From positions 1 through 41,806 of IMG/VR virus record IMGVR_UViG_2851955134_000003: DNA of 41,806 nt; one strand, written 5' to 3'. Both the position numbers and the translations under genes were made by a program. The notes beneath the pieces are model-generated. The model made no database searches. It saw only the letters and a list, made by a program, of their open reading frames with translations, and was not told where the DNA came from. Origin of the DNA: a virus. Lineage: Duplodnaviria; Heunggongvirae; Uroviricota; Caudoviricetes. How positions within the stretch are numbered: position 1 is the stretch's first letter; each line of letters opens with the position of its first letter. This document shows, in pieces, positions 6,131 through 35,760 of this stretch.

Positions 6131-6195
6131 TTACCTGAAAAACCACATATGGATAGAAAGACTGTGAATATGAATAGATATTACCTTTCAGGTAA
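6131..6195. promoter_or_regulatory. Promoter/operator module A: half-site TTACCT, AACCACATAT element, full operator TTACCTTTCAGGTAA (6181-6195)
   Basis: 15-bp inverted repeat with perfect 6-bp arms; same architecture recurs at 26115-26191, 32604-32680 and 35684-35760. Confidence 0.55.
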
Positions 6196-6232
6196 TTTTC
6201 AAAACGTGCTGGATAGCAAACAAATTATTTGA

Positions 6233-6252
6233 TACTGTATAAATATACAGTT
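6233..6252 (+). promoter_or_regulatory. LexA (SOS) box TACTGTATAAATATACAGTT overlapping the promoter of the small antirepressor-like gene
   Basis: CTGT-N8-ACAG with AT-rich centre, 18 of 20 matches to the consensus TACTGTATATATATACAGTA; TTGATA -35-like hexamer at 6229-6234; gene starts 21 bp downstream. Confidence 0.7.
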
Positions 6253-6272
6253 ATTGCATGGAGAAGATTAAG

Positions 6273-6530
6273 ATGCAGCAGTATCACTATCCACTGGAAG
6301 AGGGATTTACCGAAAGGATTCACACGCCGGGAGGCGTCAGGTCACTGGTGGAGGGATCGCACTTGATGAAATTACTCCGGGATCTCGATAAGGATGGATT
6401 TAATGTCGATGGCCCACTTGCCGAACTGACTGCACTGATTAACTACGTCACCAGCTCACAGATGTCTATGCAGGATCTGCAAACACATCTCGACTATTGT
6501 GCCGAACAATTACGAAAACAAACCAGATAA
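6273..6530 (+). CDS. Small (85 aa) antirepressor-like protein, standalone copy of the C-terminal domain shared by the two Ant proteins
   Basis: Start ATG 6273 with RBS GGAGAAG; YHYPLEEGF...IHTPGGV...QTHLDY aligns with the C-terminal ~80 aa of the ORFs at 6844-7536 and 9054-9998; LexA box directly upstream. Confidence 0.6.
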   Translation: MQQYHYPLEEGFTERIHTPGGVRSLVEGSHLMKLLRDLDKDGFNVDGPLAELTALINYVTSSQMSMQDLQTHLDYCAEQLRKQTR

Positions 6531-6561
6531 GGTTTGCAATTACCAAATGGAGTGCTTATAT

Positions 6562-6576
6562 TTACCTTTGCGGTAA
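6562..6576. promoter_or_regulatory. Operator-like site TTACCTTTGCGGTAA inside a larger palindrome (GGAGTGC ... GCACTCC, 6549-6592)
   Basis: Variant of the 15-bp motif, nested between 7-bp inverted arms. Confidence 0.4.
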
Positions 6577-6670
6577 ATTTACATCGCACTCCTCTTGTGC
6601 CATAGTAATCGGGCACTGGCAAAATCCAGTGCCGGGATTGGTCTCCCGGATTACTACAGAGGCACATATG

Positions 6671-6690
6671 CCGCATAAGCGGTTTTTTTA
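6671..6690 (+). terminator. Rho-independent terminator downstream of the small antirepressor-like gene
   Basis: Hairpin CCGC-ataa-GCGG followed by TTTTTTT. Confidence 0.5.
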
Positions 6691-6843
6691 TGTGTAAAGC
6701 GCACCTATTCTATGGTGGGCTGTGTGGGGGCACCGAAAGGTGCGCCGGGTTCCTTTGTAGCCGGTAAGACCAACTCTGCACAGTTCACCACCATCTGATT
6801 GGTCTCAGCGGTGGTGATTAACCTAACTACAAAGGTGATCGCC

Positions 6844-7536
6844 ATGAATACCAAACCTTCCATCTTTTCCTTTGAGTCATCCTGCCAGATCCGTATGTTC
6901 ATGATTGACGGAGAACCTTGGTTTGTCACCAAAGATGTGTGCAATGCTTTGAATATTGATGTTACACAAGCGAGAAAACTTGATAAAAAAGGCTGGAACA
7001 AAAAGGGGCTGTATTCAATACAGACCCCTGGTGGAATACAAGAACTATCCATCGTTTCAGAATCAGGTCTCTACATCCTTATTCTGCGTTGCAAAGAGGC
7101 AATGACTGAGGGAACGAGAGCATTCAGATTTCTTGAATGGGTTACAGGCGAAGTACTTCCTCAGATCCGCCGCACCGGAAGTTACATTAAAAACTCGCTC
7201 CCGCAGGAAGAACGCATAAAGATGGTTGCCGACCAGGTAGCCAACGCCACGGCGTCAGCAGTAATGCAGGCGATGAAGATAGAGAACAAAACCTACAGCG
7301 CCCCGCTGAAGCCCGGCTACCGCAGTCTGATTCATTCGCCGTCTGGTGTTCTCGGCCTGACGGAGAACTCATTGCTGATGAATCTGCTGAATCAGTTGCA
7401 GGACGACGGGCATGATGTATCGGGCGCGGCGGCGGAACTGACCACCATGTTCTGCTACATCGTCGGTGTGAGCAAATGCCTGCGTGATATCCAGACGCAC
7501 GCGGAGTACATCAACGACAAGGCAGGGTTCTTCTGA
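6844..7536 (+). CDS. Antirepressor with Bro-N N-terminal domain and shared Ant C-terminal domain
   Basis: 230 aa from ATG 6844 (RBS AAGGTGA); Bro-N hallmarks IRMFMIDGEPWFVTKDVCNAL ... LPQIRRTGSY; C-terminal ~80 aa near-identical to the Ant at 9054-9998. Confidence 0.8.
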   Translation: MNTKPSIFSFESSCQIRMFMIDGEPWFVTKDVCNALNIDVTQARKLDKKGWNKKGLYSIQTPGGIQELSIVSESGLYILILRCKEAMTEGTRAFRFLEWVTGEVLPQIRRTGSYIKNSLPQEERIKMVADQVANATASAVMQAMKIENKTYSAPLKPGYRSLIHSPSGVLGLTENSLLMNLLNQLQDDGHDVSGAAAELTTMFCYIVGVSKCLRDIQTHAEYINDKAGFF

Positions 7537-7560
7537 CAGAACGGCGGCACAGGGATGTGC
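7303..7560 (+). repeat. Left copy of a ~258-bp inverted repeat (3' end of ant gene plus ~24 bp past the stop)
   Basis: Aligns by eye with the reverse complement of 9030-9287 with about a dozen mismatches. Confidence 0.8.
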
Positions 7561-7609
7561 CTTTAAATAATTCTGTACAGATTGCAGACTGTGGGTGAAT
7601 AGCGTACTA

Positions 7610-7624
7610 TTACCTTAAAGGTAA
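7610..7624. promoter_or_regulatory. Operator-like site TTACCTTAAAGGTAA just upstream of the RBS of the 69-aa/288-aa cassette
   Basis: Perfect 6-bp arms; 26 bp upstream of ATG 7651. Confidence 0.5.
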
Positions 7625-7650
7625 ACCATGTGTTTACATGAGGAGGAGAT

Positions 7651-7860
7651 ATGGGATTTTGGTTCGCTCGTACAAAAACGAGGGATAATGCACCCAGCCC
7701 TCAGGCAAAAAATGCAGAAGTTCCGGCGTCAGCGCAGGTTAACAAGCGTGGTGGTGTGTATATCTCATCACAGCAAATTTCTGAGCTTCCTGAGGTTAAG
7801 GAGATGCGTCGTCTCGCTGCTGCAATCGTTAAACAGGATCTTGCCACTGTAAGGAAATAG
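7651..7860 (+). CDS. Hypothetical small protein (69 aa), first gene of a two-gene cargo cassette
   Basis: Strong RBS GAGGAGG 6 nt upstream; its stop overlaps the GTG start of the next gene (TAGTG), indicating translational coupling. Confidence 0.55.
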   Translation: MGFWFARTKTRDNAPSPQAKNAEVPASAQVNKRGGVYISSQQISELPEVKEMRRLAAAIVKQDLATVRK

Positions 7861-8726
7861 TGTTGTTAGCTCTTCTAATTATCCCCATTCTGGTTAGTGG
7901 TTATATTATGATAACCGCTAACCAGTATCATTATTTCCGTTTATACCGACATGAAGGCCAGCTTCTTTATATGAAAGTAGCTGCATTAGGTACATATTGC
8001 CTTGTTGCTTCGGTAATAATTGCCGCATTTATAAAATATAAATATCCTGATTTTCACCTAGTTCACGATATGGTGGAAACTTTTAATGTAACGTCAAAAC
8101 CAGAAACAGATAGAATTTACATGTGGCTGCTTCTTCTCTCAGCCACATCCATTTGCTTCTCTTTGTGTTATGTGTCTGTTGTGTGGGTGAAAGATTTTCT
8201 TCTTGGTTGTTTTTATAAACGTGATATTTACGAGCAAAAAACAGAGGCAATGAAGGCCAGAGTACTGCGAAAAACTTACTCGCAAGGTTCTTTAGACTTA
8301 CTATTGCTTGATGCTATTGAATCGGATCCTAAACGACCAATGCTGATTACTTTATCATCAAACAAAGTGTATGTTGGAATAATAAATGGTTCTGGTGAAC
8401 CAACGGAAAATCAGGGTCCGCATCAGCACATATCTTTTGTTCCTTTAATGTCAGGATACAGGAACAAAGACAACTTATCTGTCACATTCACTAATGCTTA
8501 TCCAGGAGAAATACAGGTCAAGCGGACTGCAGCAATAAGAGGAATTAGCAGAAAGAAAGTGCCAGGACTTGAGATCATGGTGTCTATTGACGAAATAAGT
8601 TATATATCATGGTTTGATTTTGAAGTATATAAAGCAACAAATAACAAAGTAGAATCCAGGGGGCACGTTATTCGTGTTACCAAAAATGGAAGAAATATAT
8701 ATCAAAGAAATAGCAAAAAAGAATAG
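7860..8726 (+). CDS. Hypothetical membrane protein (288 aa): three N-terminal TM helices plus ~170-aa soluble C-terminal domain; candidate superinfection-exclusion/abortive-infection factor
   Basis: AT-rich ORF coupled to the upstream small gene, followed by an intrinsic terminator; the exclusion/defence role is inferred from position in the immI-like region, not from sequence similarity. Confidence 0.5.
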   Translation: MLLALLIIPILVSGYIMITANQYHYFRLYRHEGQLLYMKVAALGTYCLVASVIIAAFIKYKYPDFHLVHDMVETFNVTSKPETDRIYMWLLLLSATSICFSLCYVSVVWVKDFLLGCFYKRDIYEQKTEAMKARVLRKTYSQGSLDLLLLDAIESDPKRPMLITLSSNKVYVGIINGSGEPTENQGPHQHISFVPLMSGYRNKDNLSVTFTNAYPGEIQVKRTAAIRGISRKKVPGLEIMVSIDEISYISWFDFEVYKATNNKVESRGHVIRVTKNGRNIYQRNSKKE

Positions 8727-8748
8727 CCCGCGCTGCGGGCTTTTTTGT
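8726..8748 (+). terminator. Rho-independent terminator of the 69-aa/288-aa cassette
   Basis: GCCCGC-gct-GCGGGC hairpin followed by TTTTTT. Confidence 0.75.
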
Positions 8749-8818
8749 GGACGAAACAAAAGCCAGTGCTACACTCATTGACGCCACATTGAGGTGGCTT
8801 ATAGATGGAAATTTCACA

Positions 8819-18226: not shown

Positions 18227-20697
18227 CAGAATCCCCCAACAGTAAGGCGAGGAATAACGGCAAGAACAGACAGCGGCAACGGGTCAAGCTGACGGATTTT
18301 TACACGTCCGTTTTTGCCCCAGTTACTGTCCAGCTTCACTTCTACTTTTCCGGTAGCATCATCAACAGGATCATCGTAGAACTCGAATTCACGCTGTGGA
18401 TATTCGTACCATTTACCGCCGGGCGTAGTCGCCCAGATGCCGCGACTGGCATTCACAACCAGAGTAACGGACGGGATCACCTGTTTTTTGTCCAGCAGCG
18501 TTTCCTGTCCGTTAATGTTGATATCCAGTGTTTCGAATTCAGCAGTTATTGGCAGGCCGATGTGCACAACAGCTCCCGGTGATTCCAGCGTGACGGCACC
18601 TCCGGAAACTACTTTCTGTGGTTCCACGTTCGCATCAGAGAGAATGTTTACGGTCTGGCCTTCAAGATGAGACAGGCCTCCAAATGTCCGGCGCGCCATC
18701 TGCCAGTTCGTGGTGGCCACATTCCTGAGGGATGGCGGGACGTTCCTGTTAGCACGAACCACTACAGCGGTATTGCTGGTTACAGAAATGATGTCGCAAC
18801 GTAATTCTTTTGACACTTCATCGCCAGTATCAGGATCAGTTCCGGTATAAGGGAACTGTAGTTGAGCACCGACATCACTACTGGAGAAGTACGCACCACC
18901 AGAAACACTGATTGTATATTCCGCGCGGTAATCCCATTCGCCAGAACCACCAGTGATGATCATCGTTCTGTCAGACGTATTTCTTCCATCATAGCTAAGG
19001 CCAGAATCAACAAAGAAAGCATCTTCATCGCTGGTAAATAAACGGCTGGACAGTCTCTCGATGTATCTCACTGTTTGCCCGTTAACGGTCCTGTTAACGA
19101 CGAAATACACCGCATCTTCATTGCCTTCGCTGATACTGCATGTGCTTTCATATTTTCCGGTACTGGATTGTGGTGCCCATGCAAAAACCTGCTGATCACG
19201 CAAATAGGTCATCACCAGTAATTTACCGTCATCACGAATGCAGAAGGCGCTGGAGTAAGGGACAATAGAGAAGCACCAGTCAACAATACTGTGCTTCTGA
19301 AAAAGATGATTGGCAAGGATGGTCAGGTCGTTACCCTGATAGCCGTCAACATCGAATGAGTAGGCCAGATCACGGACAACACTGCCTTTCTCCTGGACGA
19401 ACAGAGCAATATTCGCCACGGCAATTGGTGGGACATTGCTCGAGCCATTTGATCCCTGAGAGCTGAATGCAAATGATGATGGGGTAAGCACTTTGTTCTG
19501 GTCGCCAGTGATGACGTACTCACCTCCGGAAGTCAGCGCCACCAGCGAACCAACATCAATCAGGTGACGGATCTCATTAACCTGACGCCCGGCATAGGTG
19601 TAGATAATTCTGTCGTCATCCTGCGTAGGATTGCTTTTGCCAAAATCCTTATAATCCCCGGTACGGCTGGCCCAGATAGTCTGAGGAAACGCAGTCGATG
19701 CGGCGAAGTAAAGACGTTGTTGATAATAAACAACAGTGCCAGGATAACCATTAACACTGTTCCAGGCATATTTAGCCCATTTATAGCTGGCATTATCCTC
19801 GCCAACTACCTGCGAAGGGATATAGGAAATCACCTCGGCAGTTGCAGTAGTTCCATTTGCAGCAGTGATACGGGCAATGCCAAAACCACTGTGCAGATAT
19901 TCCCACTCAATGCCAGTATCATCATCACCGGATCCGCCCCAGCCATCCCATGATGTGCCTTCTGTATGCGAAGGGCGCAAAGTACCTGTTTTGCCTGCTT
20001 TAACGGCGCGATAGTAGTTACTGTCTGCTCGGCGAATATCGCCAATCGACGTACTCTTACTGGTTTCCCATACCGGCACAGAATCCACTGCAGGCTGTTC
20101 CAGATAGAACAATTTGCCTACCTGCTCCGCGCCAAAAATAGAGGCGCTTGCCGTTAGCGTAATTGTCCCGGTGCTGGCGCTGGCATAAACCGTCACTGAC
20201 TCGTCAATATTGATATCTTCAAATGGCCCGTTCTTCGTTACCACATCAACCAGTTGCCAGTTGTCATGCGCATAGCGGCGCAACTCTTTCGGCGGGTATG
20301 CCGGATGAACCAGCGTAAGCACGTCTGCGCTTTGCGTGAATTTAATTCGGAACAGATCGGTTTCAGTATATGGCGTGGAAATTTCATAAATAACATTGCT
20401 GCTGTTCAGCACCAACGCACCATCTTTGATAACGCGCATGTACTGGTGTCCGAACTCCAGAGCATAAGTCTGAACCGTCGAGAACTGGAACGGGATCAGG
20501 CGGCATTTCCGATTTGGGTATTTGGCGGCACCGACAAAACGCGTACCAGGTCGATTCTCAACTCCGCCATACTGCCGCACGATAAAGTTATCGCACTTGC
20601 GCAATGCCACCTGGTACTTCGCCATGTCGATACGACCGTACAACGACGGTCCAATCTCACCACCGGCAAAGCTGGGCTGGATCCAACTGATAGCCAT
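18226..20697 (-). CDS. Large tail/tail-hub structural protein (823 aa)
   Basis: Long beta-rich ORF between head genes and internal virion proteins. Confidence 0.5.
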   Translation of the reverse strand: MAISWIQPSFAGGEIGPSLYGRIDMAKYQVALRKCDNFIVRQYGGVENRPGTRFVGAAKYPNRKCRLIPFQFSTVQTYALEFGHQYMRVIKDGALVLNSSNVIYEISTPYTETDLFRIKFTQSADVLTLVHPAYPPKELRRYAHDNWQLVDVVTKNGPFEDINIDESVTVYASASTGTITLTASASIFGAEQVGKLFYLEQPAVDSVPVWETSKSTSIGDIRRADSNYYRAVKAGKTGTLRPSHTEGTSWDGWGGSGDDDTGIEWEYLHSGFGIARITAANGTTATAEVISYIPSQVVGEDNASYKWAKYAWNSVNGYPGTVVYYQQRLYFAASTAFPQTIWASRTGDYKDFGKSNPTQDDDRIIYTYAGRQVNEIRHLIDVGSLVALTSGGEYVITGDQNKVLTPSSFAFSSQGSNGSSNVPPIAVANIALFVQEKGSVVRDLAYSFDVDGYQGNDLTILANHLFQKHSIVDWCFSIVPYSSAFCIRDDGKLLVMTYLRDQQVFAWAPQSSTGKYESTCSISEGNEDAVYFVVNRTVNGQTVRYIERLSSRLFTSDEDAFFVDSGLSYDGRNTSDRTMIITGGSGEWDYRAEYTISVSGGAYFSSSDVGAQLQFPYTGTDPDTGDEVSKELRCDIISVTSNTAVVVRANRNVPPSLRNVATTNWQMARRTFGGLSHLEGQTVNILSDANVEPQKVVSGGAVTLESPGAVVHIGLPITAEFETLDININGQETLLDKKQVIPSVTLVVNASRGIWATTPGGKWYEYPQREFEFYDDPVDDATGKVEVKLDSNWGKNGRVKIRQLDPLPLSVLAVIPRLTVGGF

Positions 20698-26086: not shown

Positions 26087-26114
26087 ATCAATGACTCCGT
26101 ACGCAATTAAATTA

Positions 26115-26191
26115 TTACCAATTTAACCACATATGATTTATTTATCGTAGACAGTTGACATTTAACGTGCGAATTATTACCTTTCAGGTAA
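26115..26191. promoter_or_regulatory. Promoter/operator module B: TTACCA half-site, AACCACATAT, TTGACA -35-like hexamer, operator TTACCTTTCAGGTAA (26177-26191)
   Basis: Operator 15-mer identical to the one at 6181-6195; same module architecture. Confidence 0.55.
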
Positions 26192-26513
26192 CCAAAGAGT
26201 TCATTCCGGTTACTAACCTGACTGGCTTGTCGTTAAATTGAACAGGTGGAGTGAGCTTTTATTTTGAGCAGTACGGCGTATGGCACATGCGCCGATAGCG
26301 GTCTGGATGCGTTTAAGGGGCACCCTCCCTGGCTGTGGCAAACGAACCAGGTAGCCGGAATGTGCAAGTCGAGCGGTTTTATTCCGCGCACGGGGATTCA
26401 CCATCCCGGCGATTCGGTGTGACGCCTCGGAAGAGACGAGGGTACAACGATGAGAGCATTTATGGAGCCGCGACAAAGTGTGGCGCCTTAACAGGCTAAG
26501 TGCTCTCAGCGTT

Positions 26514-26590
26514 GTGGCATTAGCTCAGTTGGACAGAGCAACCGCCTTCTAAGCGGTTGGTCGCAGGTTCGAATCCTGCATGCCACGCCA
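26514..26590 (+). tRNA. Phage-encoded tRNA-Arg (anticodon UCU)
   Basis: 77-nt cloverleaf folded by hand: acceptor GTGGCAT/ATGCCAC, D-arm GCTC/GAGC, anticodon stem ACCGC/GCGGT with loop CTTCTAA, T-arm GCAGG-TTCGAAT-CCTGC, discriminator G and encoded CCA; differs from host argU in the stems. Confidence 0.9.
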
Positions 26591-26633
26591 GAATCACGCC
26601 TAAGGACCGTGATGCCAGAAGTTCCAGGGGCTT

Positions 26634-26676
26634 GGCGGTGATGGTTTCCCTTGAAGGACTATCACCGCCCTTTTTA
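26634..26676 (+). terminator. Candidate terminator downstream of the tRNA
   Basis: GGCGGTGAT ... ATCACCGCC stem followed by CTTTTT. Confidence 0.5.
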
Positions 26677-26788
26677 CAGCAGGACGCCATTGCGATGACT
26701 TCATGCTGTAAACCAGTACAGCCACGGAAGGCATAACTCATTGCTTCCAGTTCGCCCGGTTCGCCGGGCATTTTTTTAAGGTGAGATC

Positions 26789-27227: not shown

Positions 27228-27232
27228 AATCA

Positions 27233-27256
27233 GCCCGCCGATTCGCGGGCTTTTTT
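27233..27256 (+). terminator. Rho-independent terminator of the plus-strand cargo ORF
   Basis: GCCCGC-cgattc-GCGGGC followed by TTTTTT. Confidence 0.75.
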
Positions 27257-28730
27257 ATGCAAAAGGATCATAGTCTGTGATGGCTTTGCCTTGCTGGTTC
27301 TGCTGCCCAGGAATTCGCAGACGCTTCGACACAGGGAAAGCAAACGTCAGCAGTAGCGCATCGCCTTTACCCGGCGAACGCCCAAGCCGCTCCTTGATAT
27401 CTTCCTTCGGTTCGATAACGATTTTACCGTCCACACGAACTTTGTACTCTGCTGCCGACAGGTCGTCCGCTGTTTCCTGGTCATCCAGCATGCCGCCGAG
27501 CCTCAGCCATGTCTTGCATGAGTTGAACATCTCCCCACGCTTGTTGAGCATCTGCGGGTCAGTAGACGCGCCACCGAACGGAACAAGTTGCCATGTACGA
27601 CCCCAGCCGTCACCGATTGACTTCAGACCAGTTCCGTAACCGAAGTCGATGAACACTGCGTCAGCCTGGTACTGGTCTTCAAAGTCAGCGATACGCTTCG
27701 CCATAATCAGATCGTCAGTGGTCTTGTTGCCAGTCCACAGCACCTTACTGTGCAGCCCCTGCCGCAGGTATATCACAGCGTCATCAACGCCTGAGTATGC
27801 CGGGTCAACGCCGATTATCACCGGAGCATGTGCAACCTGCGCAGCGGTTACCACCCGTTTCATTGCCTCGTCAGTAAGACCGGTAGGGATAAACTGCAAT
27901 TCAGATGCATCAGGGAATATGCCGCGCACACGGATTTTAACGAAGTCGCTATCTTCCCCGTAGTCATCAACCCATTTCTGCAACTGCTGTTTGTTAGTGC
28001 CTTCCACCGTCCGGCTGTCAATCTGCGCAGTTTTCCAGCGGTGTTTATATTTGCGGAAACATTCGCGGAAACGCCCGGTGTTACGTGTAGGGTTTCCGAA
28101 CGCTACCCAGATAATCTCAGTGTCTTCGTCCGTAAGCGCACCCTCAGCAACTTCCCACACCAGATCCGCAATGTTCGACGCTTCATCGAATACCACGATG
28201 ATGCGTTTGCGCTCGTTGTGTAGTCCGGCGAACGCCTCAGTGTTGTGCTCAGACCAGGGGATTGCGTCAGCTCGCCACCGCTTGTCGTGCCCAGGGTCAT
28301 TGCTGTACATCGCGGTAGCGGTACAGGTAAACCAGTCTTTCGTGATAGCAAGGTTCGACCACTTGATAATTTCCGGCCAGGTCTTCGTTCGTAGCTGGTT
28401 GTCGGTGTTGGCGGTCACCACAACCTTACAATCCTCGCAAGTGGACATGCCCCAGTTGATCAGCATTGAGATGAATGCGGATTTACCAATACCGTGACCC
28501 GAAGCGCGTGCCAGCATAAGCGGCTGATAGCGCGTCTCTGGATTCTGCAGGTGATCACGTATCTCTCGGAACGCATCAGCCTGCCACTGACGTGGACCGG
28601 TGGCATGTGCCAGTTCAGTCCCATCTTCCCCCCACGGGAACGCATAGAGGGCATAGCCAAGCGGATCGTGAGTGAACCCTGCAATATCCTCGATTAACTG
28701 CTCTTCAGGAGATAACGCTGTATCTGTCAC
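27255..28730 (-). CDS. Terminase large subunit
   Basis: 491 aa with Walker A-like ASGHGIGKS, ATPase and nuclease-type acidic motifs; overlaps the small-subunit gene. Confidence 0.85.
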   Translation of the reverse strand: MTDTALSPEEQLIEDIAGFTHDPLGYALYAFPWGEDGTELAHATGPRQWQADAFREIRDHLQNPETRYQPLMLARASGHGIGKSAFISMLINWGMSTCEDCKVVVTANTDNQLRTKTWPEIIKWSNLAITKDWFTCTATAMYSNDPGHDKRWRADAIPWSEHNTEAFAGLHNERKRIIVVFDEASNIADLVWEVAEGALTDEDTEIIWVAFGNPTRNTGRFRECFRKYKHRWKTAQIDSRTVEGTNKQQLQKWVDDYGEDSDFVKIRVRGIFPDASELQFIPTGLTDEAMKRVVTAAQVAHAPVIIGVDPAYSGVDDAVIYLRQGLHSKVLWTGNKTTDDLIMAKRIADFEDQYQADAVFIDFGYGTGLKSIGDGWGRTWQLVPFGGASTDPQMLNKRGEMFNSCKTWLRLGGMLDDQETADDLSAAEYKVRVDGKIVIEPKEDIKERLGRSPGKGDALLLTFAFPVSKRLRIPGQQNQQGKAITDYDPFA

Positions 28731-29323
28731 TGATTACCATCCTGACGTTCTTTGAGTCGCTTCCTGGCTGCTGCTATGCGATCAGCAATTGTCACATTCA
28801 CATTAACATCCAGACGTTCTTTGAATGCGTTGACATCAACATGCTTACCAATCAGCTCAAGGTTCTTCACCTTGTCAGGCCATTTAATTTTTTTGAGGAT
28901 TGTCTCTATTGAATCCTCGTTCATGTTCATGATGGTCGATGACAGATCAAAGCCACTAAGCGTAGTGCGCCAGATTTTCGGCCACTCACGGATTGGTTTA
29001 AGGCTCCCATCGTCGTTGAGGATGTCGATCACGTCCATCTGGTCGATCTCCACCAGGCGCATGAGAACGTAATCAGCACTGACACGCATTCGTTTGTTGC
29101 GCTCCTCCATCAACTCGGCAATCCGTTTCTGAATGCGTTCATCGCGCATCATGACACTGGCTTTAACTGCCGCTGTATTTGGGGAGAATCCTGCGTTAAT
29201 CGCAGCCTGAGTCTGGTTTTCAGGCGTTTTGATGTATGACTGGCAATAAGCCTCCTGCATTGCTGTGAGCGGCTTAAATTGCGTTGATTTGCGTTTATAG
29301 GTTTTAGGTTCAGCAGGCATCAT
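28727..29323 (-). CDS. Terminase small subunit
   Basis: Directly upstream of the large subunit; helix-turn-helix-like N-terminal region; probable start at the tandem ATGs 29323/29320 (the ORF-track start at 29401 is TTG). Confidence 0.65.
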   Translation of the reverse strand: MMPAEPKTYKRKSTQFKPLTAMQEAYCQSYIKTPENQTQAAINAGFSPNTAAVKASVMMRDERIQKRIAELMEERNKRMRVSADYVLMRLVEIDQMDVIDILNDDGSLKPIREWPKIWRTTLSGFDLSSTIMNMNEDSIETILKKIKWPDKVKNLELIGKHVDVNAFKERLDVNVNVTIADRIAAARKRLKERQDGNQ

Positions 29324-29433
29324 AACCACCGTGGTAATTGTTACCGTTGTGGTAATAATACCATGCAAAATAAAGCCGCCATAGTTGGCGGCAGTATTCA
29401 AAATCCATCAAATTCATCATGCATAATCTACTC

Positions 29434-29445
29434 GTGACATGTCAC
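29434..29445. repeat. Palindrome GTGACATGTCAC, copy 3 of 3
   Basis: Overlaps the stop codon of the Cys-rich ORF just upstream of the terminase genes. Confidence 0.6.
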
Positions 29446-29783
29446 ACTATTAATTTCGTTTCATGCCAGCCTTTAGTCACCCAGCATTGTGAGTCACCAT
29501 TACACGGGCATGAATTAACTGGAACTCTCTCGCCGCACTTACCGCAACGTTTTCTGCTGATCGATTTTATACGCCCGCGCACACGTGCATCATCCTGGCG
29601 GATCAGCAGCGCGATGTACTCGGCCATTTCATAGGGATCGCGACCAGGGCGCCGGGCGGCGCAGTTCCGCGCCAGCATTTCAATTTCCTGAGCATCAAGC
29701 ACAATCTCCAGCTTACGCACACCAGATGCAGCTTGTCTGGCTCTCTGAGCGGCTTTGCGCTCTGCTGCTGATTTAGCCATCAA
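29442..29783 (-). CDS. Hypothetical protein with C-terminal Cys-rich (zinc-ribbon-like) motif
   Basis: 113 aa; CGKCGERVPVNSCPCNGDSQC; last gene before the terminase. Confidence 0.45.
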   Translation of the reverse strand: MMAKSAAERKAAQRARQAASGVRKLEIVLDAQEIEMLARNCAARRPGRDPYEMAEYIALLIRQDDARVRGRIKSISRKRCGKCGERVPVNSCPCNGDSQCWVTKGWHETKLIV

Positions 29784-30314: not shown

Positions 30315-31000
30315 TTCGCCTCCTGCGGCGGTTCTGGCAGCGGCATCCAGTACAAGGCGTTCCCTAACCACGATAAAGTGCCGTCGCTCAACTCCACGTA
30401 TTCCCCTTGTACCTGTCCTGCCATATACTCGCCGTGCTTTGAATAAATTAAAATCCAATCATCTTGAGCGGGCATTCGCTCACTACAGCTTATCCAACCA
30501 TCCGGAGTTACCGGAGAGTTGCCATTCACAAGGTCAGCTCGAACATATAGTGTGTCATCATGGTGCTGATTGTGGCTGCACCACGTTAATTCGCTTAACT
30601 CGCCATCTTCTGGCCATACTCCAGCTGTTTGCAGCCAGATATGGGCTGGCGCATCTTTGCAAGGTGTATTAACTGGCAACTTGTAAGTTTGGCTTACAGG
30701 TTGGCTACCCTGAGGCATGGCGGCGCGGTGACACCAGATAATCCAGCCAAGCGCCATATCCCATGCCATGTATTCGCTATCGCCATTTTTTGCCCTGCGA
30801 CGATCTACAGATTCCCCGAAACGCTTCTCCATAAATAATTCATAGGCTGCCCGTTCATCCGATACTGCTTCCAGCGATGCCAGCGCAATCCGTGCCAGCT
30901 CTTCCGCTTCTTCTGCTGGCAGTACAACGTTGCTACCAGGTCCGTATGTTTCGCGCCACTCCTTGATTGTCAGCAGTCGCTCTTTGGTAATAGTGGTCAT
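30311..31000 (-). CDS. Hypothetical phage protein with DUF551-like C-terminal domain
   Basis: 229 aa; C-terminal segment (WISCSERMP ... WMPLPEPP) resembles the DUF551 family common in enterobacterial prophage early regions. Confidence 0.5.
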   Translation of the reverse strand: MTTITKERLLTIKEWRETYGPGSNVVLPAEEAEELARIALASLEAVSDERAAYELFMEKRFGESVDRRRAKNGDSEYMAWDMALGWIIWCHRAAMPQGSQPVSQTYKLPVNTPCKDAPAHIWLQTAGVWPEDGELSELTWCSHNQHHDDTLYVRADLVNGNSPVTPDGWISCSERMPAQDDWILIYSKHGEYMAGQVQGEYVELSDGTLSWLGNALYWMPLPEPPQEAK

Positions 31001-31003
31001 GTG

Positions 31004-31153
31004 TTAGTCCTCTGTAGCAGGTGATACGCCGTAGTTGCATTCTTCATAGAATATGTCTCTGCCTATTTCTTCGGCATCCTCTGGCGTGTCTGCTTCAAAC
31101 TCAACAACCTTGCAATCATTAAATCCTTCGATAGTCACGATGTACTTAGCCAT
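31004..31153 (-). CDS. Small acidic hypothetical protein (49 aa)
   Basis: ATG 31153 with RBS GGAG; the longer ORF-track version overlaps the upstream gene. Confidence 0.35.
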   Translation of the reverse strand: MAKYIVTIEGFNDCKVVEFEADTPEDAEEIGRDIFYEECNYGVSPATED

Positions 31154-31154
31154 A

Positions 31155-31664
31155 TCACTCTCCTTTGATGCGAATGCCTGCGGCGCGTGGCACATTAACT
31201 TCCACGATGCGCACAGTTGGTTTGTACATCTCAATCGCTGTCAGCCAGTCAGCGCCGGTCATATGCTTTTCTGCATCGCCATTAGTCCATTGAACCGGTA
31301 CACCAATAGCCTTCATCGCGATTTCTATTTCCCCGGCAATGGCGCTTTTCCCGCAACCAGTAAAACCAGATACAACGACAAGAACTTCGCCTTTGGCTGG
31401 TTTTATTTCCCGCGCTTCCAGTTCTGCTATGCGCTTCTCTGCGGCTTCCAGCTCAACACGCAGCTTCCCTACCGTTAGCGCAATATCCTCGTTCTCCTGG
31501 TCGCGTGATTTGATGTATTGCTGGTTTCTTTCCCGTTCATCCAGCAGTGCCAGCACAACCTGAGGTGTGACCTTCATACGAAATGCCAGCAATTTTTGTG
31601 GTGTGGCTGCTATTTTTATTGCTTCTGCCGCCTCACGCAGAGCCTGATAGTTAATCTCGCTCAC
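31155..31664 (-). CDS. Ead/Ea22-like protein
   Basis: 169 aa; N-terminal MSEINYQALREAAE resembles my recollection of the Ead/Ea22-like family in lambdoid early regions. Confidence 0.45.
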   Translation of the reverse strand: MSEINYQALREAAEAIKIAATPQKLLAFRMKVTPQVVLALLDERERNQQYIKSRDQENEDIALTVGKLRVELEAAEKRIAELEAREIKPAKGEVLVVVSGFTGCGKSAIAGEIEIAMKAIGVPVQWTNGDAEKHMTGADWLTAIEMYKPTVRIVEVNVPRAAGIRIKGE

Positions 31665-32194
31665 TGGTTGCCTCCTTTACGAAGCTGGGCGGCGAACTCG
31701 TTAAGTGATATGTAGCAATCTCCAAATGTTAACGAACCGCTCGACTGCATATGCTCCATAGCCATCTCCACGCCCTGCGCCCGTACTTCAGCCAGGAAAG
31801 CATCGGTGGCTGGCATATTTCCTGTTGCCTTCATGGCCTCCAAAATAACAAGAACGCCATCTCGCCCAACCACCTCAGCGATAACCTCGGTGTTGTCGCC
31901 AACAACATCGCAGAATGCCTGAACTGCCTTACGAGCCAGCTCATTCTCCGCCGCAAGCGCCGAAAACTTCTCGTGTGCCAACTTAACAGCCGAATCAGCC
32001 TGCTTAATTGACTCAATCGCTTTCTGTTGGTCTTCGGCCAGCGCATTAGCACGCACCAGTTGCACTTCCAGTTGCGTTGCCAAATCGCTGATCAGCTTTG
32101 CCACACTGCGCATATCAACGGCACCACATTCTGCTTTCAGTTCCGAAGCCATCTCATGCCCGGCGGCAACTAACCCTTTGATATTACTTTCCAT
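31661..32194 (-). CDS. Hypothetical early protein (177 aa)
   Basis: Coupled ORF (ATGA overlap) in the early operon. Confidence 0.4.
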   Translation of the reverse strand: MESNIKGLVAAGHEMASELKAECGAVDMRSVAKLISDLATQLEVQLVRANALAEDQQKAIESIKQADSAVKLAHEKFSALAAENELARKAVQAFCDVVGDNTEVIAEVVGRDGVLVILEAMKATGNMPATDAFLAEVRAQGVEMAMEHMQSSGSLTFGDCYISLNEFAAQLRKGGNQ

Positions 32195-32255
32195 CTTTAC
32201 CCTCGCTTATCCACATAACTTATTGATTACACTGATAACTAAAAAGATCGTCGAT

Positions 32256-32600
32256 TCAGAACTCTTCGATTTTCCAGCCACCACCTGCTTTCTTTGGCTT
32301 AACAGTTACCCCGATGATTCGGAACGGATATTGATCTGCGGCGACTTTGGTTTTCACCCTGGCGTCGTCGGTCCAGAAACCTTTCACTTCGTGCAGTTCC
32401 ATCTCGCCGGTGGCGAGCATCACAGCGAAATCGGGCGTATAGAACGTGTTGTCAGCTAACCGCAGCTTGATACCCTCGAATCGATACCAGGCGATTTCCC
32501 CTGCACGTTTACGCAGCTCAAGGTGCTGGCAATACGCAGATTCTGTTTTGTTCATCTGGCCTGTTTTGAGTCGACCAAGAGCCTGTATCTGTTTTCTCAT
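32256..32600 (-). CDS. Small PD-(D/E)xK-type nuclease-like protein (possible resolvase/recombination nuclease)
   Basis: 114 aa; segment YTPDFAV ... ELHEVKG fits the D ... E-x-K catalytic pattern. Confidence 0.4.
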   Translation of the reverse strand: MRKQIQALGRLKTGQMNKTESAYCQHLELRKRAGEIAWYRFEGIKLRLADNTFYTPDFAVMLATGEMELHEVKGFWTDDARVKTKVAADQYPFRIIGVTVKPKKAGGGWKIEEF

Positions 32601-32603
32601 GAT

Positions 32604-32680
32604 TTACCTCTGAGGTAATTAAAAACCACATAAGACACGAAATCAATAGATGTTAGAACATTTTATTACCTAACAGGTAA
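32604..32680. promoter_or_regulatory. Promoter/operator module C: TTACCTCTGAGGTAA (32604-32618), AACCACATAA, TTACCTAACAGGTAA (32666-32680)
   Basis: Two perfect-arm 15-bp sites 62 bp apart centre to centre, directly upstream of the nuclease-like gene start. Confidence 0.55.
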
Positions 32681-32717
32681 TTATCGAGACATAAAAAAAT
32701 GCGCTATCGCGCTGGTA

Positions 32718-33518
32718 TTACTTGATAAATCCTGACGCCTTTCCCCGCCTGTATTCCTCCATCAGCCACTGCGCCGGTGTTATTCCCCCCAGGGTGGCGG
32801 CGTTAGGCATGCACCCGAAACTTCGCCCTGGTGGATGGTAAACGTCTCTCCCTGTGTCCGGAGGTGTACTCATGGGCTCTGGCTTTGCCTGTATGCTGAT
32901 CACCGGATCGGGTATCTGCTGTCCGGAAGCCACCTTTTTCGCCCAATCATCGAGCAGCCTGCGCGCGTGTTTCTCAACCTCAATCTCGCTAAGCTGGCGC
33001 TGATACATTGCACGGCGTGTATCACATACGACCCAGTACATAACCGGATGCCGCCACGGGAATCTTTCGGGACCACCAGGATATAAACTTTTTTCCTTGC
33101 TGTACCGGTGAAACTCCGCCATCACATCGTCAATGGTGACGCCAAGAACCATCTTGCTGTCTTTACACCACTTGATGAATTGCCCTGGCGACGGCCAGAA
33201 CGGAGATTCACTGGCGCGGGCGTGGCGCATACCAGCAGAAACCTGTTCACGGGTACGTATTCCCCCTTCGGCAAACGCAGCAATCCACTGCTGTTTTGCA
33301 GCAACTTCCTGCTCTGGCGTCTTCAGGTTGGTTACCACTGCCGCCGGAAACAGTTGTTTCAGCTGTTTGAAAAGGGCATCAACAAGCCTCTCTGCTGACA
33401 TGTTCACCACATTGTCATTGTTGACGTACTGATGCTCATAACCTGACATGCGAGAAAGGGCTTCTCCGTCACGGTTTTGTATCGCGGTAAAAACGTTGTT
33501 CACAAGAAATCCTCCCAC
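32718..33518 (-). CDS. Replication protein P-like helicase loader
   Basis: AAKQQWIAAFAEGGIRTREQVSAGMRHARASESPFWPSPGQFIKWCKD aligns with lambda P (RRQWVLAFRENGITTMEQVNAGMRVARRQNRPFLPSPGQFVAWCRE, from memory); follows the O-like gene; true start may be an internal ATG. Confidence 0.75.
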   Translation of the reverse strand: MGGFLVNNVFTAIQNRDGEALSRMSGYEHQYVNNDNVVNMSAERLVDALFKQLKQLFPAAVVTNLKTPEQEVAAKQQWIAAFAEGGIRTREQVSAGMRHARASESPFWPSPGQFIKWCKDSKMVLGVTIDDVMAEFHRYSKEKSLYPGGPERFPWRHPVMYWVVCDTRRAMYQRQLSEIEVEKHARRLLDDWAKKVASGQQIPDPVISIQAKPEPMSTPPDTGRDVYHPPGRSFGCMPNAATLGGITPAQWLMEEYRRGKASGFIK

Positions 33519-34291
33519 GCTTCAGGGCTGTTCCAGTGCGGAACGTTGTTATCAGGTAATGTTGATTGCTTCTGTCTGCTAATCTGCAGCCGCCTTGCCA
33601 GCTTCTGCTCCCACTGTGCCTGATGGTATGCCTTACCCTCAGCCATCCAGTAAATTCTGAACTCTGCAAGTTCCTGTGCCGTTGGCAGACTGTCCAGGTA
33701 GATCCCCTGCAAGGAGCTTTTCCGAAGAAAGTCATCTGATGGCTGCCATTGTTCATGCATGACAAATTTGCCTAATTGCCCTGGCCCACCAGGAGGAACA
33801 AAGTTATTCATCACGGCGTTGTTTGCGCCGGGGTCATGAGGCACAGAATCCCCGCTTTTTGTCCTGCTCTCCCTCTCTTGGTTAAATGACTGGTTATATG
33901 ACTGGTTCTGGATCCCGTTTTTGGGATCATTCAACATCCCGTTTTTGGGTATATTCCCGTTTTCGGTAACATTACCGTTTTCGGGTTCATTGCCCCCTTC
34001 CCGGTTGCCTTTAATGTTCCCGTTTTTGGTTATATTAAGAGAGAAAACCCGCACTCTTTTCGTCGCTCCCTTTCTCTCTCCGGTATCTGAAATAAGCCCC
34101 ATTTTCATGAGAGATATAAGCCCGGCCTGTACGGTTTTTTTATTCAGGCAGGTGTCTTTAACGAGGCGTTCTATGCTGGGGTAGCAGAGGTTATATTCAT
34201 CGGCTCTGTCAGCCATCGAGAGCAGTATGAGCTTTAATGACGAGCTACCTGGATCTGTCTCCCAGGCCCAATCTGTTGCATGTCTGCTCAT
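33500..34291 (-). CDS. Replication initiator O-like protein containing the origin iterons
   Basis: 263 aa; N-terminal HTH-like domain; central Asn/Gly repeat peptide (NGNIKGN ... ENGNVTENGNIPKNG) encoded by the iteron DNA; C-terminal helical domain. Confidence 0.65.
   Translation of the reverse strand: MSRHATDWAWETDPGSSSLKLILLSMADRADEYNLCYPSIERLVKDTCLNKKTVQAGLISLMKMGLISDTGERKGATKRVRVFSLNITKNGNIKGNREGGNEPENGNVTENGNIPKNGMLNDPKNGIQNQSYNQSFNQERESRTKSGDSVPHDPGANNAVMNNFVPPGGPGQLGKFVMHEQWQPSDDFLRKSSLQGIYLDSLPTAQELAEFRIYWMAEGKAYHQAQWEQKLARRLQISRQKQSTLPDNNVPHWNSPEAWEDFL
33911..34033. repeat. Origin of replication iterons (five copies of ATCCCGTTTTTGGGAT-like 16-18-bp repeats)
   Basis: Direct repeats at about 33911, 33935, 33953, 33971 and 34016, followed by an AT-rich stretch, inside the O-like gene as in lambda ori. 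Confidence 0.7.
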
Positions 34292-34306
34292 GATTAATCT
34301 CCGCTA

Positions 34307-34507
34307 TCAGCTTGAATGTTGTGGGGAGGAATTAATCATGATCTGCTTAATCTCTGCCCTGATGCGACGGTTTGATTCCATGGTGCACTCAACACAGTGT
34401 CCGTTGTAAACCCAGCGTTCACTGTCATGTCCGTGCTTACATGGTTTTCCGGTGTAGTAGCGTTTAAGTCCGCGCTTTGCGGCATCAATACGTGTAATGA
34501 TTTCCAT
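34307..34507 (-). CDS. Small Cys-rich (zinc-finger-like) protein in the cII position
   Basis: 66 aa from ATG 34507; CKHGH ... CVEC motif; between cro-like and O-like genes. Confidence 0.4.
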   Translation of the reverse strand: MEIITRIDAAKRGLKRYYTGKPCKHGHDSERWVYNGHCVECTMESNRRIRAEIKQIMINSSPQHSS

Positions 34508-34657
34508 GGTAAGCCCTGTTATTAGTATTGGGATTACGGTTATTTTGTGCTGACACAAAAAAAAGATCAACCAGATTTGGTTTTTTATTACCTTTGAGGT
34601 GCGAATAGATATGAAAAGACCGCCGGATGGCGGTCTACAGAGGGTTGTGGCTGGATA

Positions 34658-34888
34658 TCATGAGTAGAAGAAGTATGCCAGTTCTGCTTTTGAGCGCAAC
34701 CATTGTCTTGATTTACAGGCTTTAAAAAGCCCATTCATCAATACTTTACCTGGCATTTTGCGCTTACCTGTTAAGTGAGTCTGGATATAGTGACTCGTCG
34801 TTCCGGCTTCCTGTGCGAAGGCTTCACGCTCATCCGGAGTAAGTGCAAGCCAGTGCTTTTTGAAATCGAAATGTCCGTTATCGCTCAT
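34658..34888 (-). CDS. Cro-like helix-turn-helix regulator
   Basis: 76 aa, HTH-like FAQEAGTTSHYIQTHLTG; transcribed divergently from the cI-like gene toward the replication genes. Confidence 0.5.
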   Translation of the reverse strand: MSDNGHFDFKKHWLALTPDEREAFAQEAGTTSHYIQTHLTGKRKMPGKVLMNGLFKACKSRQWLRSKAELAYFFYS

Positions 34889-34933
34889 AGCTATTGCCTG
34901 ATATTTATTTCAGATAATAAATATTCACCCATA

Positions 34934-34987
34934 AGGTAACAAAAATCAAGGATAGTTACCTATGGGGTGCATTTACCTGTTGGGTAA
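34934..34987. promoter_or_regulatory. Immunity-region operators between cro-like and cI-like genes
   Basis: Divergent half-sites AGGTAAC (34934-34940) and GTTACCT (34955-34961) plus 15-mer TTACCTGTTGGGTAA (34973-34987). Confidence 0.5.
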
Positions 34988-35042
34988 TATTGCTTTAAAT
35001 TGAATCATCTACTGATTCATATATGAGGCGATTTTCCAGAAA

Positions 35043-35627
35043 ATGAAAAGTATCCAGGACGTCCGCAGGCAAAATCTCAACGACTTGATCGACCGTGAAT
35101 TCAATGGTGTTCAGACGCGGATGGCAGAAAAACTTGGAACTCAGGCAAATCTGGTAAACCGCTGGGCTCTTGGCAAGAAGGTTATCGGCGACCAGGTTGC
35201 GCGAAAAATTGAAGCTGCCGCCAATAAACCACGTAACTGGCTTGATATCGATCGCTCGCTTTCTCAGGAAGGTTTTCAGCCTGTCGGCCCAAGCGACATT
35301 GGTCAGCTGGCGGCTCACAACCTGGAACGCTGGATGAGCGAAAGCCGCGACCTTTCAACGCAGGGAAAACTACACCGCGCATCCGGCGTCGCCCAGGTGA
35401 CAATCAGCCGCCTGTTAAACAATGAGGTCAGCGTTTCCATTTCCACCCTGGAGAATGTTGCATCCGCATTCGGGCGTCACGGCTATGAATTACTGATTCA
35501 CCCGCACGACCCTGCGACCATCAACTATGATCGCTCGCGCTACGCATTGTTACCCGAAACCGAGAAAGCAAAGATCGAAAGTTACATTGAATTTGTCATC
35601 AACCAGAACGAAAAAAACAAACAATAA
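35043..35627 (+). CDS. CI-like prophage repressor with two HTH regions and no S24 peptidase domain
   Basis: 194 aa; N-terminal HTH (RMAEKLGTQANLVNRWALG) and second HTH-like segment (ASGVAQVTISRLLNNE); no Ser-Lys autocleavage domain; divergent from cro-like gene. Confidence 0.7.
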   Translation: MKSIQDVRRQNLNDLIDREFNGVQTRMAEKLGTQANLVNRWALGKKVIGDQVARKIEAAANKPRNWLDIDRSLSQEGFQPVGPSDIGQLAAHNLERWMSESRDLSTQGKLHRASGVAQVTISRLLNNEVSVSISTLENVASAFGRHGYELLIHPHDPATINYDRSRYALLPETEKAKIESYIEFVINQNEKNKQ

Positions 35628-35648
35628 AACCATATTTTCAGTAAGTAA

Positions 35649-35672
35649 GCCGCCTTATGGCGGCTTTTTTAT
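35649..35672 (+). terminator. Rho-independent terminator of the cI-like gene
   Basis: GCCGCC-ttat-GGCGGC followed by TTTTTT. Confidence 0.75.
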
Positions 35673-35683
35673 TGCCTATTCGA

Positions 35684-35760
35684 TTACCTAACGGGTAATT
35701 TTTTTAACTCATACCTATTGACATCAAACCATATACGCATAATTATTACCTCAACGGTAA
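35684..35760 (+). promoter_or_regulatory. Early-left promoter/operator module D: TTACCTAACGGGTAA, -35 TTGACA, AACCATATAC, TTACCTCAACGGTAA
   Basis: Two operator-like sites 62 bp apart flanking a TTGACA -35 hexamer (35718-35723); drives the plus-strand recombination operon. Confidence 0.55.

Follow-up and report, generated by a model that had tools for sequence, protein, structure and literature searches.

Dispersed TTACC-N5-GGTAA palindromes as predicted operators of the Rep immunity repressor in a phiV10/epsilon15-like Escherichia coli prophage

We present an analysis of 41,806 nucleotides of viral DNA (IMG/VR record IMGVR_UViG_2851955134_000003; the whole stretch is termed the window) and of a short palindrome, (A)TTACC-N5-GGTAA(T), that is scattered over its intergenic regions. 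The palindrome is very probably the operator of the immunity repressor Rep, a non-cleavable tetrameric protein that would shut dispersed promoters and be relieved by the LexA-controlled antirepressor Ant. By sequence comparison the window is an E. coli prophage, a phiV10/epsilon15-like podovirus of the genus Uetakevirus, and its nearest relatives in BLAST searches against phage records were phiv142-3, PAS61, phiV10, ZX5 and TL-2011b (93–98% identity over the regions tested). A preceding sequence-only reading had proposed that one repressor directly controls many transcription units including accessory genes, and this proposal is supported by the computed evidence together with the annotation of epsilon15.

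The probable operator motif, its conservation and its repressor

The repeat had been described as TTACCT-N3-AGGTAA, and every coordinate given for it proved correct on recheck. Perfect copies begin at 6181, 7610, 26177, 32604 and 32666 (five, versus none in 100 shuffles), copies with one mismatch at 6562, 34973, 35684 and 35746, and a copy with two mismatches at 34588; allowing up to two mismatches, 14 were found against 0.9 expected. By these counts the repeat is real, but its 6-N3-6 form had to be revised. Pooling of 314 distinct sites from the window and its relatives defined a 5-N5-5 constrained core, in which TTACC-N5-GGTAA is fixed, an A/T flank is preferred (ATTACC-N5-GGTAAT) and the central five bases are A/T-rich and otherwise free. 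Ten perfect and two one-mismatch copies of this core occur in the window, where 0.78 would be expected. All 12 lie in intergenic DNA, which accounts for 8.1% of the window on a gene map built by homology with annotated relatives; the syntenic two-mismatch sites at 34588 and 34956 are likewise intergenic, and the other 27 two-mismatch matches are all in coding DNA. The motif is therefore not equally frequent in coding or shuffled sequence, and a chance origin of the repeat is ruled out by the shuffles and the intergenic-only distribution. The positions listed earlier were right, but four sites had been missed, namely 29323 and 29341 at terS and 34925 and 34956 between cro and rep. A search with a degenerate consensus for the epsilon15/SPC32H operators gave no match.

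The strongest precedent is the GenBank record of epsilon15 (NC_004775), in which seven features are annotated as "protein_bind; repressor; lysogeny", all of them with TTACC-N5-GGTAA. Six of the seven are syntenic with window sites: 12–27 upstream of terS (29341), 2931–2947 upstream of the head operon (26177), 19895–19911 in the gap separating ant from the tail-fibre gene (6181), the early-left pair (35746, 35684) and one between the replication genes and the next operon (32666). Counting of the core gave 12 perfect copies in epsilon15 versus the seven listed in its record, and at least 14 sites in the window; no repressor-binding features are annotated in the phiV10 record. A motif search over the prophage and its relatives located the core at the same loci in phiV10, epsilon15, ZX5, TL-2011b, SPC32H, Enterobacter phage Tyrion and Klebsiella phage BUCT711, which together with the window make up eight Uetakevirus genomes from four host genera. 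Counted by locus, there are one or two copies ahead of terS and single copies ahead of the head operon, in the gap from ant to the tail-fibre gene and, in genomes with a Bro-N antirepressor behind ant, past ant as well. The lysis genes and int are each preceded by a one-mismatch site, and the early-left operon by a pair. Two or three copies lie in the rep–cro interval, a weak copy stands past cro, and the replication genes are followed by another pair. The three sites of the operator region between cro and rep (OR) are kept in seven lineages. In the alignments the half-sites are fixed, and the central bases and flanks drift.

The regulatory genes that bear on the reading are the following.

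35043–35627, plus strand: rep, immunity repressor of 194 amino acids, with an N-terminal helix-turn-helix (HTH) DNA-binding domain and a C-terminal HTH-like domain for tetramerisation and Ant binding
34658–34888, minus strand: cro-like gene of 76 amino acids, divergent from rep, matching PHROG 35 "transcriptional repressor" (E 9e-13)
6273–6530, plus strand: ant, small antirepressor of Rep, matching PDB 5D50 chain E (SPC32H anti-repressor) with E 2e-47 and near-identity over 83 residues
6233–6252, plus strand: LexA (SOS) box TACTGTATAAATATACAGTT, overlapping the predicted ant promoter TGGATA (6210–6215)-17-TACTGT over its likely -10

Rep is 100% identical to phiV10 p40, ZX5 ORF21 and the phiv142-3 repressor and 42% identical to the Rep of epsilon15/SPC32H. 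It aligns end to end with PDB 5D50 chain A, the SPC32H Rep (E 4e-42, residues 1–190), and Pfam returned HTH families only (HTH_3) for it, with no Peptidase_S24 autocleavage domain. Its recognition-helix motif NLVNRW is invariant in five lineages, matching the invariant half-site. Rep homologues of 54–59% identity from a Serratia and another E. coli prophage adjoin the same core, their recognition-helix variants NLISRW (Serratia) and NLVSRW (E. coli) being still paired with TTACC-N5-GGTAA, so that the association of Rep and motif is broad. The ant gene stands beside the tail-fibre gene, the position of ant in SPC32H; the LexA box before it has one mismatch to the 16 specified bases and is the sole match in the window, and its CTGTAT...ACA is kept in all eight genomes. 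In SPC32H, Rep reportedly escapes cleavage in the SOS response and is inactivated by Ant, with ant said to be repressed by LexA.

Published work on the relatives is in line with such a role. In one published discussion, the Rep of SPC32H is described as a tetramer on its palindromic sites, with DNA-binding pairs drawn from different dimers, and Ant as the protein that breaks this tetramer up (PMC9638917); the fold of its C-terminal domain has been linked to DNA looping (PMC9986798). Overexpression of the ZX5 repressor, which is identical to Rep, lowered endolysin and holin transcripts by more than 99.9% in a study that defined no operators (PMC9782041). By analogy with these relatives, the Rep of the window would be a tetrameric immunity repressor that is inactivated by LexA-controlled Ant.

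A mechanism can be proposed on this basis. The analysis itself shows the motif with its statistics and positions, the conserved sites and spacing and the homologies; the promoter assignments, the occupancy of each site and looping are inferred. Rep, a non-cleavable two-domain HTH protein of the epsilon15/SPC32H type, would form a tetramer with two DNA-binding dimer units, as reported for SPC32H, and would occupy at least 14 sites at nine intergenic loci in the lysogen. At most of these loci the operator lies over the -10 end and the start, or fills the -35/-10 spacer, and RNA polymerase would be excluded. The units shut in this manner would be cro with the early-right genes, the early-left recombination/excision operon, the DUF1064-to-gp49-like operon, the packaging genes, the promoter into tRNA-Arg, the isrK/C4/Bro-N antirepressor operon and the swappable cargo cassette, and the tail-fibre and head promoters would each be flanked by a full Rep site and a half-site. 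At the early-left and DUF1064 promoters, a second operator 62 bp upstream would allow one tetramer to sit on both sites with a small loop. Derepression would not need RecA-mediated cleavage of Rep: DNA damage would take LexA off the ant promoter, and the Ant then made would strip Rep from the DNA.

Probable operators at predicted promoters and the 62-bp pairs

The operator-bearing loci are given below, the promoters being predictions by consensus matching plus direct reading of the sequence.

35684–35760, plus strand: module D, early-left promoter; operator 35684–35698, TTGACA 35718–35723, 17-bp spacer, AATTAT 35741–35746, operator 35746–35760
34925–34987: OR region with three sites, 34925–34939 (one mismatch), 34956–34970 (two mismatches) and 34973–34987 (perfect core)
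34942–34914, minus strand: predicted cro promoter TTGTTA-17-TATTAT, with operator 34925–34939 in its spacer and -35
34588–34602: degenerate operator, just past the cro terminator and ahead of the replication genes; a perfect AACCAGATTTGGTT palindrome comes next, at 34569–34582
32604–32687, minus strand: module C, at the junction of the replication genes and the DUF1064-to-gp49 operon, downstream of the replication-operon terminator; 62-bp spacing
32687–32660, minus strand: predicted module C promoter TCGATA-16-TAAAAT, with operator 32666–32680 in its spacer
32646–32618, minus strand: predicted module C promoter TTGATT-17-TTTAAT of the DUF1064 operon, with operator 32604–32618 at the -10 end
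29323–29337 (one mismatch) and 29341–29355 (perfect): terS operators at 18-bp spacing, immediately before the likely terS start codon (ATG at 29320, minus strand)
29363–29355, minus strand: terS extended -10 TGGTATTAT, downstream of the terminator 29392–29375 and before both operators
26115–26191: module B, whose operator 26177–26191 overlaps the -10 of a conserved plus-strand TTGACA (26155–26160)-17-TACCTT
26514–26590, plus strand: tRNA-Arg(UCU), an Rfam match, preceded by an operator-overlapped predicted promoter and a structured leader of about 330 nucleotides
6130–6195: module A, flanked by the tail-fibre gene on the minus strand and ant on the plus strand; operator 6181–6195, 50-bp spacing
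6534–6562, plus strand: predicted promoter TTGCAA-17-TATATT, with operator 6562–6576 from its last -10 base, upstream of the isrK-like RNA, the C4-like RNA and the Bro-N antirepressor
7582–7610, plus strand: predicted promoter TTGCAG-17-TACTAT, with operator 7610–7624 from its last -10 base, at the junction to the variable cargo cassette

A recurrent layout can be read from this list, in which the first T of TTACC is also the last base of the predicted -10 hexamer; plus-strand cases are 35746, 6562 and 7610, minus-strand cases 32618 and 29355. The operator at 26177 overlaps the predicted -10, and those at 32666–32680 and 34925–34939 fill the promoter spacer. The downstream operator of module D covers the -10 end and the predicted start site, 62 bp centre to centre from its partner, and the module C operator at 32604–32618 also contains GAGG, the ribosome-binding site for the gene that begins at 32600. 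Such a geometry fits repression by occlusion of the predicted promoters. For the degenerate operator past cro, phiV10, ZX5 and Tyrion have syntenic counterparts with one mismatch.

The module B promoter is directed to tRNA-Arg and away from the head genes, and the half-site ATTACC at 26114–26119 lies next to the conserved minus-strand promoter block of the head operon; in module A, a half-site ATTACC (6130–6135) abuts the predicted tail-fibre -10 TAGAAT (6130–6125, minus strand). The tRNA-Arg leader (stretch 26185–26590, plus strand) folds better than shuffled sequence (z = -2.8), and SPC32H has a tRNA-Arg at the same place. Antisense to this tRNA/leader stretch phiV10 has an annotated protein gene, p04, whose counterpart in the window is the open reading frame 26520–26771 on the minus strand; as judged from the sequence, this gene call may be spurious. 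At terS, the start annotated in phiV10 (224 amino acids; window 28727–29401, minus strand; phiV10 record 41–715) would enclose both operators and the extended -10, and the ATG at 29320, giving 197 amino acids as in ZX5, TL-2011b and epsilon15, appears the more likely start.

The operator spacings reported in the sequence-only reading were confirmed, being 50 bp from 6131 to 6181 and 62 bp each from 26115 to 26177, from 32604 to 32666 and from 35684 to 35746. Modules C and D are paralogous and share the order operator, about 20 nucleotides, CTATTGA (-35), 17 nucleotides, -10 and operator. When IMG/VR was scanned for two cores 47–77 bp apart, 120 loci were retrieved, with 117 adjacent pairs at exactly 62 bp, 19 at 63 bp and other distances rare. 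The pairs, with the 62-bp spacing kept in more than 100 distinct relatives, stem from 57 and 54 distinct module sequences and, since many of the IMG/VR contigs are related, are not independent events; clearly, insertions and deletions have been excluded at the paired modules while substitutions accumulated. The upstream operator of a 62-bp pair is centred near -60 and adjoins a T-tract, and 62 bp corresponds to about six helical turns. Most likely, a single Rep tetramer binds both operators cooperatively, one with each of its DNA-binding units, with a small loop round the promoter.

Alternative explanations and a second palindrome

Several observations weigh against Rep as the single repressor acting at all these sites. 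Promoter scans gave no overall excess of promoter-like sites over shuffled sequence. The 62-bp spacing could in part stem from a fixed promoter geometry, or from interference with an UP element, instead of looping; the 50-bp spacing of module A is a non-integral number of helical turns and, taken with the spacings of 16–18 bp and 30–32 bp at OR and terS, leaves no single phasing rule. The operator 6181–6195 is centred about 57 bp upstream of the likely ant start, where simple occlusion does not fit. That an operator lies upstream of the small antirepressor gene, as had been claimed, holds true (6181), but its distance and the LexA box overlapping ant's own promoter make control of ant by Rep doubtful. 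None of the Rep homologues examined had both an altered recognition helix and an altered motif. Finally, the cro-like protein could recognise the same sites.

This last point leads to a rival explanation, in which the cro-like protein (34658–34888) is the main or an additional binder of the sites, in the manner of the operators common to lambda CI and Cro, and the dispersed copies serve down-regulation in the lytic phase instead of repression in the lysogen. Three sites lie between cro and rep, the protein matches the "transcriptional repressor" family PHROG 35, and with a mean column identity of 83% across five lineages it is more conserved than Rep, its invariant segment AGTTSHYIQTHLT paralleling the invariant half-sites. 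Nevertheless, the epsilon15 record assigns the sites to the repressor, the protein reported to bind palindromic DNA as a tetramer in a relative is Rep (PMC9638917), and paired sites suit a protein with two DNA-binding units; shared operators would, moreover, be compatible with control by Rep and not opposed to it. Sequence alone does not discriminate between Rep, the cro-like protein and joint use of the sites, and we regard the cro-like alternative as possible, though on balance doubtful. Binding by another factor, be it the gp49-like regulator (29442–29783) or a host protein, is very unlikely: the gp49-like protein is highly conserved and of a transcriptional regulator class (PHROG 536), and some sites precede late operons, but the sites are most crowded at rep/cro and the early promoters, the motif accompanies the phage in four host genera, and the separate palindrome AACCA-N4-TGGTT, described below, is a better candidate site for a late regulator. 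We know of no host regulator with the consensus ATTACC-N5-GGTAAT.

The two other explanations dispense with a common regulator or with DNA binding. Modules C and D are clearly paralogous, and divergence sets in right after the 7610 operator as it would at a mosaic joint, which could suggest that the repeats are shared bits of duplicated promoter modules or mosaic recombination boundaries. Under such an origin it would be hard to understand why the flanks and the central five bases drift with both half-sites fixed, why single sites stand in unrelated contexts (terS, the tRNA promoter, after ant), why a perfect dyad symmetry is kept that neither a promoter nor a joint needs, and why the motif occurs wherever a Rep homologue does, including a differently organised Serratia prophage; we consider it highly improbable. 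Nor is an action as RNA, in hairpins, terminators or processing sites, at all credible. Each repeat can form a short hairpin, but at -3.5 to -5.5 kcal/mol these are weak, and a T-run does not follow them consistently. The real terminators in the vicinity are distinct G+C-rich stems, several of the repeats fall within promoter spacers, which would not be transcribed, and the symmetry is the same on both strands with a free loop sequence.

The element AACCA(C/T)ATA, which the sequence-only reading had placed in a shared architecture with the operators, is present at all four modules, but it is not part of the operator. Its reverse strand, CATATGTGGTT, is the right part of a 14-bp near-palindrome AACCA-N4-TGGTT with the consensus AWCCATATRTGGTT; as half of a separate palindrome, it was ruled out as a portion of the Rep operator, and it was ruled out as an IHF site also, the IHF features of the epsilon15 record lying elsewhere. 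AACCA-N4-TGGTT is not annotated in that record. Relatives keep the element in modules A, B and C; in module D it varies between lineages, and its presence there may be coincidental. Nine copies of the palindrome with at most one mismatch occur in the window (1.4 expected), five of them regulatory. The copies, and the gene of the regulator that could act on them, are as follows.

3138–3151: palindrome at the lysis promoter
6141–6154: palindrome at the tail-fibre promoter
6521–6534: palindrome just upstream of the isrK/C4 promoter
26125–26138: palindrome at the head promoter
34569–34582: perfect palindrome after the cro terminator
32624 and 35727: degenerate copies
29442–29783, minus strand: gp49-like "transcriptional regulator" (PHROG 536)

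All eight genomes have the same head-promoter block, ATATGTGGTTAAATTGGTAATAATTTAA. At the head and tail-fibre promoters the TGGTT half takes the place of the left Rep half-site, giving a fused TGGTT-N5-GGTAAT, which accounts for the "half-sites" recorded earlier.

The gp49-like protein has 77–97% identity in the best 120 of 708 relatives, a basic N-terminus and five invariant cysteines in its C-terminal third (C80, C83, C92, C94, C100). It had no sequence match in Pfam, NCBIfam or PDB; its AlphaFold model was poor (mean predicted local distance difference test score, pLDDT, of 66), and Foldseek with that model gave no match at E below 1. On a reading of the sequence only, it may combine an N-terminal ribbon-helix-helix with a C-terminal Cys cluster. 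Downstream of its gene, the segment 29355–29451 (minus strand) has a layout like lambda PR': GTGACATGTCAC, a perfect palindrome of 12 bp, lies partly over the predicted promoter GTGACA-18-CATGAT (29445–29416, minus strand), after which come the strong terminator 29392–29375, the extended -10, the two Rep operators and terS. Such an order points to a short transcript that ends at the terminator; the late genes may then be reached by antitermination or re-initiation.

A broader two-factor code may be put forward tentatively, and as a whole we hold it to be rather unlikely. Here a Rep tetramer would form a 62-bp micro-loop (about +1 to about -60) at each early promoter, Rep would gate the packaging, head, tail-fibre, tRNA and cargo genes, and a second regulator would act through AACCA-N4-TGGTT, meeting Rep at the hybrid TGGTT-N5-GGTAAT. 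If true, it would amount to combinatorial control of the lysis/lysogeny and early/late decisions in Uetakeviruses.

Antirepressor modules, known systems and prophage context

The accessory region and the ends of the prophage carry the following features, the RNAs among them coming from an Rfam scan of the window that yielded four (isrK-like, C4-like, sar-like and the tRNA).

6613–6689, plus strand: isrK-like RNA (Rfam isrK, 74.7 bits), of an Hfq-binding RNA family
6670–6683, plus strand: terminator between the isrK-like and C4-like RNAs
6708–6795, plus strand: C4 antisense-like RNA (Rfam C4, 78.6 bits), directly upstream of the Bro-N gene
about 6856–7536, plus strand: Bro-N antirepressor (Pfam Bro-N, E 2e-13)
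7651–8726, plus strand: cargo cassette of two genes (69 and 288 amino acids) whose function is not known (PHROG 3630, unknown function)
9054–9998, minus strand: P22-type ant, part of an immI-like module spanning 9054–10790
10000–10067, plus strand: sar-like RNA (Rfam, 45.2 bits, just over the gathering score), opposite the P22-type ant
10071–10274, minus strand: small open reading frame of the P22 immI-like module
10329–10790, plus strand: Arc-like gene of the P22 immI-like module
1163–1179: attachment core aatcattcccactcaat, equal to the published attP/attB core of ZX5, phiV10 and epsilon15 (PMC9782041)
40556–41806, minus strand: integrase gene, reaching the window end

Operators do lie upstream of the genes that had been called cargo (6562, 7610); these genes, however, are mostly antirepressor modules, and the one truly variable cassette is 7651–8726. 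Judged by its genes and RNAs, the prophage has three antirepressor systems, namely the LexA-controlled Ant, the isrK/C4/Bro-N operon with the Rep operator 6562, and the P22-immI-like module, in which (9054–10790) no Rep operator was found. The tandem of isrK and C4 before Bro-N resembles the P1 immI or Gifsy-1 IsrK-AnrP arrangement, here in a podovirus prophage. The promoter and operator at 7582–7624 are common to TL-2011b and, in diverged form, ZX5; the genes downstream differ from phage to phage, with divergence beginning right behind the 7610 operator. This segment looks like a repressor-controlled slot for exchangeable genes, which would be silent in the lysogen and on at induction. Pfam and PADLOC gave no match for the two cargo genes, and the PADLOC search returned no defence-system match except a faint TIR-like one at 10833–11444.

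Since dispersed repressor sites are annotated in epsilon15 and the SPC32H Rep/Ant pair has been crystallised (PDB 5D50, 5D4Z), the kind of system is already known. Shared with these two phages are the homologous Rep and Ant, the ant promoter with its LexA box, an identical operator core at syntenic loci, the 62-bp operator pairs and the genome organisation. Here, however, Rep is only 42% identical, though the recognition helix is kept, and an operator-bearing isrK/C4/Bro-N operon and cargo cassette are present that both lack; conversely, the third early-left site of epsilon15 (32479) and its lysis-upstream site are not in the window. Many operators scattered over separate operons are also a feature of P1 C1, as is, in P1 immI, an antirepressor operon with a C4-type antisense RNA (here 6708–6795) under a primary-repressor operator (here 6562–6576). 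The P1 operators are asymmetric 17-mers bound by monomeric C1, whereas the site here is a perfect dyad and induction would proceed through the LexA-controlled small Ant; the repressor here, placed in HTH_3 by Pfam, is probably unrelated to C1.

With lambda CI/Cro the prophage shares a repressor gene divergent from cro, three operators in the gap separating the two genes, the overlap of operators with early promoters and operators spaced for one helix face. It differs from lambda in that Rep has no S24 autocleavage domain, the operators are not confined to two early regions and extend over nine loci including terS, tRNA, antirepressor and cargo, and the pairs are 62 bp apart round one promoter versus 2.4 kb. 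SOS induction through an antirepressor instead of repressor cleavage is known from Gifsy/Fels-2, 186 Tum and N15 AntC, from whose antirepressors the Ant of the SPC32H family is reportedly distinct in structure, and Gifsy-1 IsrK-AnrP likewise has an isrK-like RNA before a Bro-type antirepressor. The stoperators of mycobacteriophage L5 are asymmetric, stand in one orientation inside transcribed regions and act on elongation; the sites here, in contrast, are symmetric, intergenic and at predicted promoters.

Current understanding is not overturned by these findings. What is added is a fuller site list of the phiV10 type, the -10/operator junction, the genus-wide 62-bp pairing, the apparent operator-guarded slot and the late-promoter palindrome. 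An operator map is thereby supplied for the phiV10 immunity type, which is common in E. coli and includes O157 typing phages and reporter phages. The positions of the sites indicate that late, tRNA, antirepressor and accessory genes may be wired straight to the immunity repressor and not solely by a cascade, and the 62-bp pairs offer a natural test bed for the tetramer model from the SPC32H structures.

The phage lies in the window in reversed orientation relative to the phiV10 record. With the attachment core at 1163–1179 and the integrase gene running to the window end, the window comprises about 1.16 kb of host flank followed by almost the entire prophage; as it stops exactly at the integrase start codon, the one-mismatch Rep-like site that relatives have upstream of int falls outside view. 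The host-side flank (1–1179) holds two genes (171 and 179 amino acids); the TL-2011b record carries both at its end, under the names DNA methyltransferase and DUF5384. The stretch 3079–3493, which separates the tail-fibre gene from the lysis cassette, is a 415-bp A/T-rich segment with no O-antigen acetylase gene, in difference to phiV10, SPC32H and Tyrion, which have one; it is also devoid of the Rep site that relatives carry before the lysis genes, its sole remaining element being CCATATATGG. Behind the first small gene of the early-left operon stands a 344-amino-acid gene of function not known (35938–36972, plus strand), which is not in phiV10; in the Serratia and E. coli prophages, however, its place is taken by proteins of comparable size.

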